Source of the DNA: Escherichia phage vB_EcoM-S1P5QW | Sequence record: OL956808.1 | DNA length: 64,000 bases | Direction: 5' to 3' (one strand) | Shown here: positions 8,599 through 17,384 of the stretch, piece after piece | Numbering within the stretch: the stretch's first letter is position 1 | How the letters are laid out: each line of letters opens with the position of its first letter | Made by a program: the position numbers and the translations under genes | The notes under the pieces: generated by a model | Seen by the model: the letters and a program-made list of their open reading frames with translations, nothing else | What the model was told of the DNA's origin: nothing | The model's database searches: none

Positions 8599-8630
8599 GT
8601 TTACACAGGGTTTTAGTAGTGATACTATTA
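8599..8630 (+). promoter_or_regulatory. T4-type early promoter (GTTTAC -35, extended -10)
   Basis: TTTCACAAAGTTGTTTACA...GTGATACTAT read in sequence upstream of the internal-protein gene. Confidence 0.55.
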
Positions 8631-8662
8631 CCCTATCAAAACAAAACCAAATGGAAATCAAA

Positions 8663-8896: not shown

Positions 8897-8927
8897 GTTT
8901 ACTTTTAGATAGGGTAGTGATACTATT
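8897..8927 (+). promoter_or_regulatory. T4-type early promoter with stem-loop
   Basis: GTTTAC...AGGGTAGTGATACTATTACCCT (inverted repeat around -10). Confidence 0.5.
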
Positions 8928-8954
8928 ACCCTATCAACTACCGAGGAGAATAAA

Positions 8955-11820: not shown

Positions 11821-11848
11821 AGCCCCGACCGAAAGGTTGGGGCTTTTT
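11821..11848 (+). terminator. intrinsic terminator hairpin plus T-run
   Basis: GCCCCGACCGAAAGGTTGGGGC followed by TTTTT. Confidence 0.7.
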
Positions 11849-12375: not shown

Positions 12376-12403
12376 AGCCCCGACAGAAAGGTTGGGGCTT
12401 TTT
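12376..12403 (+). terminator. intrinsic terminator hairpin plus T-run
   Basis: AGCCCCGACAGAAAGGTTGGGGCT then TTTTT; near-duplicate of the 11821 hairpin. Confidence 0.7.
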
Positions 12404-13361: not shown

Positions 13362-13405
13362 ACTCCCACGGATTATAAAACCCTTAATTAACTAAAGGAA
13401 ATGCT

Positions 13406-13999
13406 ATGAACATGCTGAAGAAAATTGTTGAGTTTATTCGCACTAAACTTGGTTCTGCTATGGCTAAAAATCTATCTGTTGAAGAGCAGTATACTGCCGC
13501 AGCAGCAAAACTACTTGATAAAATTAAAGATCTAAAAACTGCTTCTGTTAAATCTATTAATGAAGAAAAGCGTATTCGTGAACTTATTGTCGAAAAGAAT
13601 CGACAGGCCGAATCAAAAGAGCGTGAAATTCGCAAGCTTCTTTCGGAAGGTCAAGATGTAACAATGCATGCTAAACTTGGTTTACTATATCGTCGAACAG
13701 CTGAGCAGTTGACTACTAAAGCTGATGGTTATGCTGAAATGCGAATTGAAATCGCCAAGAAAGTAGTTGAGTTAGATGATGCTCGCCAAGAACTTGCAGT
13801 TAAATTGGAATATATCCGTGAAACTCGCGCCGCGAATGCCCTCGGAATTAGTACTGCTGATGATGTAGTTGAAATTGCAGCACTGACTAAGGTTGATATT
13901 GAAGATACTCTTGCTCGAGTTGAAACCTTTAATGGCAATATTTCTGGGGTTGAAACTACCTCTGCCGATGTTCAGGAATACATTAATTCTCTGAAATAA
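13406..13999 (+). CDS. coiled-coil protein
   Basis: 197 aa, heptad-rich throughout; a PspA/IM30 resemblance was considered but is not convincing. Confidence 0.5.
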
Positions 14000-14005
14000 T
14001 GATAA

Positions 14006-14024
14006 GGGGCTTCGGCCCCTATTA
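14006..14024 (+). terminator. GGGGCTTCGGCCCC hairpin
   Basis: perfect 5-bp GC stem with UUCG tetraloop after stop codon. Confidence 0.55.
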
Positions 14025-14040
14025 CTTGGAGTAAGTAGGA

Positions 14041-14646
14041 ATGAAAATGCAAAGTGATTTCAATTCAATGTTTGAAGAGTTCCAAAGACAGGTTGATGTT
14101 CCAGACCAATTATTAAATGCTCTTAAACGTATGGCAGAAGGACGTAATTATTATTGGGGTTCTTCATATGAAACTGATGAAAGTCTTTCTGGATTTTATA
14201 AAGGTAAAAAGTCTTTAATACGTCCTGGAATACTTATTAACAGTATTGAATCAATTCATTCATTAACATGTGATTTTGATGTTGAATTTACTGATTTCAT
14301 TTCTCCTGAATGGACAGTATGTTATTTAAACGACGATTATGATTATCTTGGCGTTTACAGTTTAAGTGACGCATGGTTTAAACGTAATTTACAAAAGTCA
14401 AATTTGTTCTATATTGATACTACGGTAAAATTTCAGGGAAAGAAATATTTCTTTACTCTTATAGTTGACTCTGAAACAAAATATGAAAATAAGCGTATTC
14501 TTAATAAAAAGAATATCTTAACTATCGTTGATGATCTTTTTGATAAATTCGTGGAAAATCCTAATTTTGAAAGCGATTTATTATTAGAAAAATTTGTTAA
14601 GGAATGTAGAGAATATGTCAAAGCCATCACTATACCTTCCAAGTAA
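14041..14646 (+). CDS. hypothetical protein (first of tandem family with C-terminal FVxECR motif)
   Basis: 201 aa; C-terminus EKFVKECREY. Confidence 0.5.
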   Translation: MKMQSDFNSMFEEFQRQVDVPDQLLNALKRMAEGRNYYWGSSYETDESLSGFYKGKKSLIRPGILINSIESIHSLTCDFDVEFTDFISPEWTVCYLNDDYDYLGVYSLSDAWFKRNLQKSNLFYIDTTVKFQGKKYFFTLIVDSETKYENKRILNKKNILTIVDDLFDKFVENPNFESDLLLEKFVKECREYVKAITIPSK

Positions 14647-15007
14647 ACCCTTAAAGTATGAACTAAAGCGTCAGCTAATTCCTACTGATGTATTAATAGG
14701 TCCTGTGACAGCTATATCATTTGTAATTCTATTGGTTGTTGGAATGGTTATAGACTTTATGACTGATATTGAATCTGGCGTAATATTTTTGTTAGTATTA
14801 ATTCTTCCATTAGTAGTTCCATTTTTATTGGTACCTGTAAATTGGGTAGGATATTGGTATCAAGGAAGACATTATCGTAAACGTGTACGTGAATGGAAAG
14901 CTCAGTGTAAAAAGATTAAAAAGGAACACCAGCTTAAATTAGATATGCATGAATTTAACGAAATTATGAAATTTGTTAAGGAATCACGATGCAAAAGCCA
15001 AAACTAA
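14615..15007 (+). CDS. small membrane protein (tandem family)
   Basis: 130 aa from ATG 14615; hydrophobic N-terminal half, C-terminus KFVKESRCK. Confidence 0.5.
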   Translation: MSKPSLYLPSKPLKYELKRQLIPTDVLIGPVTAISFVILLVVGMVIDFMTDIESGVIFLLVLILPLVVPFLLVPVNWVGYWYQGRHYRKRVREWKAQCKKIKKEHQLKLDMHEFNEIMKFVKESRCKSQN

Positions 15008-15363
15008 ATAAAGTCAAATATTCTTTTTCTGAGTCATTTTTAATTTTTGCTGTGGCGTTGGCTGCAGCTCTTGCTGGTAGTCTTATTGGATTAATGATTG
15101 ACTGTATTATTTTAAACATCCGCAGTAATGTCAGCGGTATAGTAGATATAATAGAAGTTTGGAGTGAACTTCATTATACTATAGCGATTTCATTATTTTC
15201 ATTCTTTGGTATTATTTTATATTTTCATTATGATAATTTTAAAATAAATTGGCAAAGAAAAAAGGATTACAAAATACAATTAAAAGAATATAATAACTAC
15301 ATGTCTTATATTGAAAATGAATCAATGAAAGAATTCGTGAATGATTGTAGGAAAATCAAATGA
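14989..15363 (+). CDS. small membrane protein (tandem family)
   Basis: 124 aa; hydrophobic segments, C-terminus EFVNDCRKIK. Confidence 0.5.
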   Translation: MQKPKLNKVKYSFSESFLIFAVALAAALAGSLIGLMIDCIILNIRSNVSGIVDIIEVWSELHYTIAISLFSFFGIILYFHYDNFKINWQRKKDYKIQLKEYNNYMSYIENESMKEFVNDCRKIK

Positions 15364-15848
15364 TTTTAAAAACTCGCTGGTATGATTTAGATGATGGGGA
15401 TGATGGCATTTCAGTTGATAGAGTTGACTGGAATGGCTGTTCCGAAGATATGAAAAATTTGCTGATTAGGGAGTTTAGAATGGGATATCAACCAGTTAAG
15501 CCATCTACTGCAACAGATGATAAATTCGTGTGTATTCATAATGGTCGCGCTAAATTAACGAACACTGATTGGTTCACAGATAAGATTATGATTCTGTGGT
15601 ATATTATTAGTTTTCCTGTGACATCATTTGTATTTTGCTTCTTTGGAGAAAGTCCAGTAGACAGAACGGGAGATTGGATTATTTTAACCATACTTGTTAA
15701 TATTTTTACAGCAGCAATATTATCTGGGATATGGTACACGTTCATTGAAATGCCATGGCGTTTACGTAGGCAGCAAAAGATTTTTGATGAAAAGAAATAT
15801 ACTCAAAATTTAAATAATTTTATCACCGAATGCAGGAAATTAAAATGA
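15360..15848 (+). CDS. small membrane protein (tandem family)
   Basis: 162 aa; hydrophobic segments, C-terminus NFITECRKLK. Confidence 0.5.
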   Translation: MILKTRWYDLDDGDDGISVDRVDWNGCSEDMKNLLIREFRMGYQPVKPSTATDDKFVCIHNGRAKLTNTDWFTDKIMILWYIISFPVTSFVFCFFGESPVDRTGDWIILTILVNIFTAAILSGIWYTFIEMPWRLRRQQKIFDEKKYTQNLNNFITECRKLK

Positions 15849-16285
15849 AAACATTATCAGCTGGTATTATCTTTATGACAGAAGATAAAGATTTATTCAT
15901 GGGACGGGTTACTGGTTCTCGTAAGCCTGGAATGATGGCACATCGCTGGGATATTCCAAAAGGCCGTGTAGAAAATTCTGATTTGAGCGCACTAGATGCA
16001 GCACGAAGAGAATGCTTAGAAGAGACCGGTTTTAGCAATTATAATCCAGACCTTCTAGAAGACCTAGGTGTATTTAAATATTCTAGTAATAAAGACTTAC
16101 AGCTGTTTTATTATACGATTCCAGTAGAGCATGAGATGTTTAGAAATTGCCATTGCGAGTCTTATTTTGAAAATAAAGATGGTGTTATGATTCCAGAGAT
16201 GGATGCTTTTGCTCTTATTCCTCGTACTCAGTGGCAATATGTGATGGGTCCTTCACTTTACCGAATAATGAACAGCCTCTTTTAA
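15845..16285 (+). CDS. nudE: Nudix hydrolase NudE
   Basis: Nudix box around DAARRECLEETGF; directly upstream of lysozyme e as in T4; start at ATG 15845 after AGGAAA. Confidence 0.8.
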   Translation: MKTLSAGIIFMTEDKDLFMGRVTGSRKPGMMAHRWDIPKGRVENSDLSALDAARRECLEETGFSNYNPDLLEDLGVFKYSSNKDLQLFYYTIPVEHEMFRNCHCESYFENKDGVMIPEMDAFALIPRTQWQYVMGPSLYRIMNSLF

Positions 16286-16816
<531 letters not shown>

Positions 16817-16910
16817 AGTTATTTACTTTCTCCTAGAATTGTGATAGTATATTCACAGTTACTTGAAGAGATAAATTATTAATTAAAATATTTACATTTA
16901 AAGGATACAC

Positions 16911-17384
16911 ATGAAAACATATCAAGAATTTATTACTGAAGCAGCTATTAATTCTCAAATTATTGCTGAATCTTTTACTGATCTTTTGAAATTTAAAAAA
17001 GGACAGAAAATCACTGCTGTACTGGATGATGGTACAGAAGTTGAGATGGATGTACAGGGATATAATTATGCAGTAGATGGAAAACTGTATAATAAATCTC
17101 ATGCTAAATTTGATTCATTTGACGACTTTGTTAATACAGTTGAAGATGAAAAAACTCGTCGATCCATTGCAACAGGTGATGCTAAGGTTCTTATGGCACA
17201 TGGTCATGAACGTATTCGCGCTAAACAGAATAAAATGGGTGAAGATAATTTTGCATTAGTTGGTTATCAATCTGGTAAACAAACTTATGGCTATCAACGT
17301 ACTGCTACCATGTATAACAAAAATGGTAAAATTGCCTTTGTGAATAGTAAAGGTTCTATTCAGTACGTTAAATCGTTCAAATAA
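16911..17384 (+). CDS. internal protein with capsid targeting sequence
   Basis: N-terminus MKTYQEFITEA matches T4 internal-protein CTS; 157 aa. Confidence 0.7.
   Translation: MKTYQEFITEAAINSQIIAESFTDLLKFKKGQKITAVLDDGTEVEMDVQGYNYAVDGKLYNKSHAKFDSFDDFVNTVEDEKTRRSIATGDAKVLMAHGHERIRAKQNKMGEDNFALVGYQSGKQTYGYQRTATMYNKNGKIAFVNSKGSIQYVKSFK

Follow-up and report, generated by a model that had tools for sequence, protein, structure and literature searches.

A conserved C-terminal peptide on the small genes e.5, e.4, e.3 and e.2 downstream of e.6 in T4-type phages

Four small tandem genes (positions 14,041-15,848) in a 64,000-nucleotide stretch of Escherichia phage vB_EcoM-S1P5QW (OL956808.1; this whole stretch is hereafter the window) end in related C-terminal peptides. 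The stretch belongs to a Tequatrovirus, with 98.2% identity to Escherichia phage AdolfPortmann and 93% to T4 over 13400-16900. The four open reading frames (ORFs) are genes e.5, e.4, e.3 and e.2 of the T4 annotation; e.6 lies upstream, and nudE and then e lie downstream (Table 1). Sequence comparisons indicate that protein-level selection keeps the shared peptide, here termed the tag, in at least a dozen phage genera. We consider it likely that the four genes share the tag as a selected C-terminal module that would serve as a docking helix, with e.6 as the likely partner.

The shared C-terminal peptide

The tails end in KFVKECREYVKAITIPSK (e.5), KFVKESRCKSQN (e.4), EFVNDCRKIK (e.3) and NFITECRKLK (e.2), exactly as read in a preliminary description of this DNA. 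The motif F-V/I-x-E/D-C-R is found at or near the C-terminus of e.5, e.3 and e.2; e.4, whose tail ends in FVKESRCKSQN, has the Cys-shifted variant FVKESRC. The similarity exceeds the expectation from AT-rich composition. An exact 16-mer repeat with copies ≤600 nt apart arose in 0 of 30 first-order Markov simulations of the window, and six-frame translation of the 64 kb yielded three matches to the peptide F[IV].[ED]C[RK], each of them in one of these tails (shuffles: mean 0.14, maximum 1). The repeated 16-mer AAATTTGTTAAGGAAT does have two exact copies, at positions that differ by 3 and 12 nt from those first assigned to it (14593-14608 and 14957-14972). As for the second proposed repeat, GAATG(T/C)AGGAAA, GAATGYAGGAAA is exact at 15828-15839, and the copy at 15343-15354 has one mismatch (GATTGTAGGAAA). 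Three of the four products had been predicted to be membrane proteins; e.4, e.3 and e.2 each have two hydrophobic segments, and e.5 has none. In these three proteins the flanks on the N- and C-terminal sides are K/R-rich and the loops acidic, which predicts an N-in/C-in topology with the tails in the cytoplasm. e.6 has no hydrophobic segments of this type.

In relatives, the core consensus of the tag is hydrophobic-x-x-[F/W]-[I/V]-x-x-C-R; the acidic residue of the preliminary description is not part of this core. Orthologues at ~33-47% identity retain the motif. The tails of Mosigvirus ATK47 read QFIMECREY (e.5), EFVKEIRCK (e.4) and NFIKECRK (e.3, at the very end), and e.2 ends in EFIEECRK in Dhakavirus and in SFIEECRK in Gaprivervirus. 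Many genes between e.6 and e are tagged in a CIP9-like Enterobacter phage, Klebsiella phages Marfa and KPV15, and Pectobacterium phage PM2, whose loci were found via e.6. Distant examples of terminal tags are EEFIKHCREAVNG, ANWIKGCRK, DNFIKSCRK and ELFIAKCRAK. Tags were also present in Karamvirus PG7, Moonvirus KM16, and the Aeromonas phages Aes012 (Tulanevirus) and ZPAH1 (Emmerichvirinae). In two IMG/VR phage genomes of ~230 kb (L071/L072, 6651-7932), the first two genes after e.6 carry a tag with Ile for Arg (tails ending in SFINYCIVNVRGEI and SFVEYCIEMNKLTQEK); thus, Arg is not absolutely required in every lineage.

When nine e.5 sequences, drawn from seven genus-level groups and 16-47% identical, were aligned, invariance was confined to columns M1, N97, F185, C189 and R190. 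A profile search of 1.84 billion representative proteins with e.5 returned 26 clusters, all of the e.5 family, and all 20 distant members that were fetched have F-[IV]-x-x-C-R followed by 3-17 residues at the end. Among 20 sequences of the e.2 family (12-99% identity), conservation reached 90% only at the start Met and at the Cys and Arg of the tail. The likeness among the e.5, e.4, e.3 and e.2 families detected by hhalign was limited to the last 11-27 columns (e.4-e.3, 86%, and e.3-e.2, 88%, both confined to the last 19-27 columns). When the tails were removed, no pair of the four window families reached 40% hhalign probability, and the only residual links above 40% were those of e.4 or e.3 with small families of other genera that have two transmembrane segments. 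In databases, too, e.2-e.6 are kept apart as orphan families (PHROGs 2607, 2604, 2330 and 2203). These comparisons indicate that the tag is the shared and most constrained element on bodies that are unrelated or very distantly related, and that it is conserved at the amino-acid level in orthologues.

Alternatively, the tag could be the last recognizable remnant of common ancestry, with e.4, e.3, e.2 and the e.5 tail as tandem paralogues and no function of its own. In e.4, e.3 and e.2 alike, a basic helical tail comes after two transmembrane segments; e.3 has a weak match to the e.4 PHROG (E 0.008), and the N-termini of e.4 and e.3 both read M-x-K-P-x-L. A pair of 112-aa proteins from PM2 (c87) matched e.3 (95% over 94 columns) and e.4 (61-69%) in hhalign, which is a weak and transitive connection. 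However, a neutral remnant is not expected to be the most conserved part of a protein, and the tag holds nearly all invariant residues; it also occurs on unrelated bodies, i.e., e.5 and proteins of 94-102 aa (c80, c83, c141). A common origin of the membrane members can coexist with a selected tag and does not replace it, and we consider ancestry without function improbable as the explanation.

Codon use was compared over ~50 distinct tails. Phe was encoded by TTT or TTC, or replaced by Trp (TGG); Ile by ATT, ATC or ATA; Val by GTT, GTG, GTC or GTA; Cys by TGT or TGC; and Arg by all six codons (AGA, AGG, CGT, CGC, CGA, CGG). This synonymous variety, together with the invariance of tag residues in divergent families, indicates that the peptide and not the DNA is conserved. 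The proposal of a conserved DNA junction was therefore not borne out; the nucleotide repeats on which it was built are a by-product of the same peptide, embedded ribosome-binding sequences and codon bias.

Ribosome binding sites and recombination at the tag codons

Successive genes from e.5 to nudE overlap by 32, 19, 4 and 4 nt, and the Shine-Dalgarno (SD) sequence of the next gene lies within the tail codons at all four junctions (Table 1), in agreement with the preliminary description. In 14020-16285 there is no annotated and no convincingly predicted promoter or terminator, and the annotations of relatives show none from the hairpin that follows e.6 up to the late promoters ahead of e. Because of these overlaps and the lack of an intervening promoter or terminator, the five genes look like one translationally coupled run, with each SD inside the upstream ORF, a layout that is ordinary for T4 early regions. 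The junctions resemble those of other coupled overlapping genes (ATGA type) of T4 early operons, in which the final codons of the upstream gene contain the SD; they differ in that the SD coexists with a conserved peptide and shifts between its variable positions. Coupling, one of the two explanations first offered for the motif, is thus consistent with the gene layout; however, the SD uses variable positions only, which leaves conservation of the motif unexplained.

The distance from the motif to the next ATG ranged from -1 to +38 nt. When the ATG was -1 to +4 nt past the Arg codon, the SD spanned tag positions 2/3-4, and positions 3-4 of these short tails were K-E (AAGGAA), K-G (AAAGGA), E-E (GAGGAA) or R-S (AGGAGC). 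In tails with 2-5 additional residues, where the ATG was at +7 to +10, positions 3-4 were free (ND, ID, TE, KQ, KY, KN, DD, KH), and the SD was formed by the Arg codon and those after it (AGGAAA, AGAGGT, AGAAGG), which encode R-K, R-G-K or R-R-N. When the ATG was ≥14 nt away, the SD lay outside the tag, and Arg was then mostly CGT or CGC (once CGG, once AGG); AGG was used for Arg chiefly where it forms the SD. Since each gene closes with its tag, the SD of the next gene must be written into the tag, where it takes up those variable positions that yield the right spacing. In KPV15, a tagged 102-aa gene (ending in SLELFIAKCRAK; L025, 10845-11153) has nudE on one side and e on the other, and falls outside the usual e.6-nudE interval. 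The next SD lies 45 nt beyond the start of its tag, which therefore has no overlap with a ribosome binding site.

These results bear on the possibility that the junction RNA or DNA is conserved as a coupling or regulatory site, such as an SD enhancer or a RegA operator, with the peptide being incidental. The RegA operator is A+U-rich and unstructured, lies at or just 5′ of the AUG, and has a 5′ poly(A) tract; its consensus from SELEX is aaAAUUGUUAUGUAA (PMC3014915). The embedded SDs and the gene overlaps of 4-32 nt would suit a site of this kind, and the junctions are A+U-rich and unstructured, with AAAUUUGUUAAGGAAU resembling the RegA consensus. Most T4 ribosome binding sites do so too, and the likeness appears no greater than expected of them. 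Several findings argue against such a site: the invariant residues occur in every synonymous codon, including six Arg codons and TGG for TTT; the motif-to-ATG distance is variable, and the SD is outside the motif in long tails; an SD of 4-6 nt cannot account for the conserved F, I/V, C and R; and the motif persists where the downstream gene differs. As the cause of conservation, a nucleic-acid site is largely refuted and very improbable. RNA structure was also rejected as an explanation, because the four junctions folded no better than shuffled sequences (z = +1.3, -1.1, +0.3 and +0.8). RegB sites (GGAG) were not relevant in this stretch, in which the SDs are AAGGAA and AGGAAA.

Comparison of T-even phages for gain and loss of modules, as suggested in the preliminary description, revealed loss of e.2. 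In Yersinia phage PST, G4498 and locus L010, e.2 is absent and nudE begins exactly at the position where e.2 would start. The e.3-nudE junction of these phages matches that of T4 e.3-e.2 up to GATTGCAGGAAA and that of T4 e.2-nudE from TGCAGGAAATTAAAATG on. The crossover therefore took place in the shared C-R-K codons (TGCAGGAAA), and the e.3 tail became DCRK-LK. Because e.2 is found beside nudE in all other genera, its absence in PST-like phages represents a loss. Hit counts suggest that e.2 is missing from ~50 of ~500 Tequatrovirus records. In the T4 reference records (AF158101.6, 67475-67960), e.2 is frameshifted; the annotated product has 102 aa, and the C-terminal 63 codons, including the tag, are in another frame. 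e.2 is an intact 162-aa ORF in the window and in most relatives, and judging by the frameshift it seems dispensable in laboratory T4. Marfa and PM2 have tagged genes in tandem duplicate, which fits unequal exchange at tag sites.

The second explanation first offered was a recombination junction that shuffles small gene modules; such a junction would be a coding analogue of promoter-early stem-loop (PeSL) elements. PeSLs are intergenic cassettes of T4-type phages, consisting of a promoter and a stem-loop terminator, and their role in shuffling modules is documented (Arbiol et al. 2010, PMC2839356; Comeau et al. 2014, PMC4122927). The tag junctions are similar to PeSLs in that they are short repeats at gene boundaries in a hyperplastic region (in other genera, ~4 kb of extra genes lie between e.3 and e.2), end in an SD and a start, and coincide with deletion or exchange of modules; the e.2 deletions, tag-site crossover included, and the tandem duplicates are of this kind. 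They differ in that the T4 e-cluster junctions overlap and are themselves coding, with neither a promoter nor a stem-loop, and in that it is the peptide that is conserved. Moreover, the microhomology is only 9-12 nt long, the junctions share only 9-16 nt, and the peptide is kept at 12-20% identity, in far-diverged orthologues with different DNA. The tails are not homogenized: codon identity at identical residues was 52% for tails within a genome vs. 45% between genomes, and gene conversion or concerted evolution was rejected on this ground. We consider it quite improbable that the motif exists as a recombination cassette. The repeated C-R-K codons served as microhomology for deletion of the whole e.2 module, and such recombination is incidental to the tag and not what it is for.

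Association of the tag with e.6 and its possible role

A six-frame scan of T4 1-50 kb and 83-169 kb (L034-L036) and of the window (equivalent to T4 ~19-83 kb) found the core [FW][IV]..CR inside real ORFs of a T4-type genome only in e.5, e.3 and e.2. e.6 was found in 1106 phage records. For 40 IMG/VR loci with e.6 at 49-99% identity, we recorded ORFs with the core within the last 25 residues in the 6 kb on each side of e.6. The core was present in 104 of 531 downstream ORFs vs. 0 of 538 upstream ORFs (Fisher's test 9e-35, which is not an independent-sample probability because the genomes are related). The first gene after e.6 was tagged in 36 of the 40 loci, the other four being ORF-calling artefacts or F-[IV]-x-Y-C-I variants; with variant forms counted, motif genes were downstream of e.6 in all 40. 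The pairing also holds in Aes012 and ZPAH1, in which e.6 is next to nrd genes or gene 39.1, not e.

The tag sits on the predicted cytoplasmic tails of the two-pass inner-membrane proteins e.4, e.3 and e.2 and on soluble e.5, all four of which are translated from one tightly overlapping run downstream of e.6. We propose that it forms one face of an amphipathic helix, with hydrophobic residues at -3/-4, F at 0, I/V at +1 and C at +4 (i, i+3, i+4, i+7), and this helix would dock all carriers onto one common partner. The best candidate for the partner is e.6, encoded immediately upstream, in an arrangement that may be like that of PspB/PspC recruiting PspA.

Short terminal peptides of this type are familiar in T4. 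gp43, gp33, gp55 and RNase H have C-terminal tails that bind the gp45 sliding clamp, and the internal proteins carry the N-terminal capsid-targeting sequence MKTYQEFIAE. The tag is similar to these docking peptides in being a short conserved terminal peptide on otherwise unrelated phage proteins, presumably with one common partner. It differs in its sequence, [F/W]-[I/V]-x-x-C-R, and in its carriers, which are early membrane and soluble proteins encoded in one contiguous run beside e.6.

Several points weigh against a docking helix with e.6 as partner. Synteny is the sole basis on which e.6 is proposed. The e.4-type tails have no Cys at the tag position, this residue being replaced or shifted. 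In the Pseudotevenvirus Xman, which has full-length e.6 (31% identity), the next genes end in DLVGELC and KVVEIC and not in the canonical tag; e.6 of RB43, also a Pseudotevenvirus, looks frameshifted. The AlphaFold 2 (AF2) model of e.5, built from a 25-sequence alignment, was poor (predicted local distance difference test [pLDDT] score 59), so that its tag helix may be either free or packed. A search of open-access literature found nothing on the function of e.2-e.6 or on the shared motif, and a prior description is possible. Finally, the invariant Cys-Arg could reflect chemistry (metal, disulfide, covalent modification) and not docking.

Such chemistry at Cys-Arg, with metal or disulfide bridging between subunits or, in view of the co-transcribed nudE, ADP-ribosylation by T4 Alt/Mod, is one form of a wider alternative in which the tag acts at the protein level by means other than e.6 docking; the others are a degradation signal and a capsid-targeting or gp21-like signal. 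C and R are invariant, and the tails end K/R-rich; a basic C-terminal tail is similar to the ClpX C-motif-2 class. In every examined Tevenvirinae locus that has e.2, nudE comes next, either immediately or past 1-2 small ORFs; ADP-ribose and NADH are among its annotated substrates. However, a degron for a host protease leaves the strict synteny with e.6 unexplained, and we regard a role of the tag apart from e.6 docking as possible but unlikely. The F-I-x-E of the tag resembles part of MKTYQEFIAE, but a capsid-targeting or gp21 site was rejected: the tag is C-terminal and on early membrane proteins, and its Glu is not conserved outside four genera, being absent in CIP9-like, Marfa, KPV15 and most PM2 tags. 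These same phages keep MKTY.EF..E on their internal proteins. In the window, an ORF after e (16911-17384, ipIII position) starts with MKTYQEFITE, the leader for capsid targeting and gp21 cleavage that T4 internal proteins carry. The F-I-x-E in it is similar to the first half of the tag, a likeness that fails in other genera.

The single-sequence AF2 model of e.6 consisted of a long helical hairpin (residues 2-80 and 86-145) and a C-terminal helix, with pLDDT >90 for about residues 40-110. In a Foldseek search of PDB with this model, Vipp1/PspA occupied the top 11 places (best E 2.9e-4; template modeling score about 0.5). Pfam, NCBIfam and PDB gave no sequence match for e.6, PspA_IM30 included, and hhalign against E. 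coli PspA gave 1% probability; the PspA-like reading of e.6 is a lead only, derived from a predicted structure. The e.5 model had no PDB match below E 0.04 in Foldseek. The gene arrangement is similar to that in the enterobacterial Psp (phage shock protein) system (pspABCDE), in which a long-hairpin helical protein (PspA) precedes small inner-membrane proteins (PspB, PspC) whose C-terminal domains are helical and cytoplasmic. It is conceivable, though doubtful, that e.6 and the tagged genes form a Psp-like phage module for membrane remodeling or membrane stress, in which e.6 would be PspA/Vipp1 (ESCRT-III)-like and the tag helix would recruit or regulate it at the host inner membrane. If so, the variable bodies would be interchangeable sensors or anchors, and the hyperplastic region, fixed tag and fixed e.6 would be explained.

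Annotation, neighboring features and significance

Searching the sequences of e.5, e.4, e.3, e.2 and e.6 against Pfam, NCBIfam and PDB gave nothing usable. A homologue search with e.3 returned close relatives only, and a profile search with the tail alone was unproductive (8 candidates). Precomputed Pfam assignments (PF26876, PF26873, PF26896) were found on e.5 relatives and on proteins matched by the tail profile. Homologues of e.3 and e.4 are named "sulfurtransferase" in OL964745.1, PV287714.1, OP870145.1, MK962756.1 and protein clusters P0013, P0031 and P0032. No NCBIfam or Pfam model supports this function, and the name looks like a propagated misannotation.

The positions of the genes, tag codons, SDs and repeats are listed in Table 1. 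The hairpin between e.6 and e.5 is annotated as a terminator in ATK47, G4498 and ASO78A. Two more exact local direct repeats were found upstream of e.8: the 24-mer GTAGTGATACTATTACCCTATCAA at 8616-8639 and 8914-8937 (~300 nt apart), and the 18-mer GAAAGGTTGGGGCTTTTT at 11831-11848 and 12386-12403 (~555 nt apart). Both have the look of regulatory elements that recur, similar to promoters or terminators and possibly of PeSL type.

Table 1. Features of the e.6-e region in the window
Feature	Position	Strand	Remarks
e.6	13406-13999	+	197 aa, soluble, all-helical; T4 annotation
GC-rich UUCG hairpin GGGGCTTCGGCCCC	14005-14020	+	Terminator-/attenuator-like; between e.6 and e.5
e.5	14041-14646	+	201 aa, soluble; tag FVKECR at residues 185-190, then 11 further residues; T4 annotation
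First exact 16-mer AAATTTGTTAAGGAAT	14590-14605	+	Codes K-F-V-K-E; exact match
e.5 tag codons F-V-K-E-C-R (TTT GTT AAG GAA TGT AGA)	14593-14610	+	K-E codons give TAAGGA (14598-14603), SD-like for e.4
e.4	14615-15007	+	ATG at 14615; 130 aa, two transmembrane segments, predicted cytoplasmic tail; T4 annotation
Second exact 16-mer AAATTTGTTAAGGAAT	14969-14984	+	Exact match
e.4 tag codons F-V-K-E-S-R-C	14972-14992	+	TAAGGA (14977-14982) is e.3 SD; e.3 ATG (14989) overlaps R-C codons
e.3	14989-15363	+	124 aa, two transmembrane segments, predicted cytoplasmic tail EFVNDCRKIK; T4 annotation
e.3 tag codons F-V-N-D-C-R	15334-15351	+	R-K codons AGG AAA (AGGA 15349-15352) are e.2 SD
TGTAGGAAA in e.3 tag codons	15334-15351 region	+	Left microhomology arm for e.2 deletion
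e.2	15360-15848	+	162 aa: 75-aa N-terminal domain, two transmembrane segments, predicted cytoplasmic tail NFITECRKLK
e.2 tag codons F-I-T-E-C-R	15819-15836	+	AGGA (15834-15837) is nudE SD
TGCAGGAAA in e.2 tag codons	15819-15836 region	+	Right microhomology arm for e.2 deletion
nudE (Nudix hydrolase)	15845-16285	+	Pfam NUDIX E 1e-13; T4 annotation; ATG overlaps e.2 stop (ATGA)
Lysozyme gene e	16322-16816		Downstream of nudE

A second tail family was observed outside the stretch. It consists of tandem small genes (61-120 aa) that end in W-[VFYLI]-x-S-S-x-x-C, e.g., GAWVSSSALC, GGWVSSSMEC, GFWYSSSMSRC and SIWQPSSC (L003, 6946-7740; L005, 31-1070; L006, 9-1277; L018, 9710-11334; L027, 3876-4465). 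These genes are located between e.3 and e.2 in most non-Tequatrovirus genera, and as a block near e.6 in Aes012. A conserved protein of ~300-320 aa (Pfam DUF7277 + DUF7275) and a 228-aa protein accompany the block, and Tequatrovirus is without the block in its entirety.

The genes described here are known T4 ORFs that have been "conserved hypothetical" since the T4 annotation; the shared tag is apparently undescribed, as no paper on it was found in open-access literature. The locus is a clean natural example of dual coding, in which a ribosome binding site shifts from one free position to another within a peptide under constraint, and the repeated codons of that peptide also create microhomology where modules get lost. 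The link between e.6 and the tag spans Tevenvirinae and Aeromonas phages of other Straboviridae lineages. A shared tag that is unique to this cluster in the genome and that follows e.6 would tie e.2-e.6 into one functional unit, and it provides a first testable clue to the role of the e cluster.

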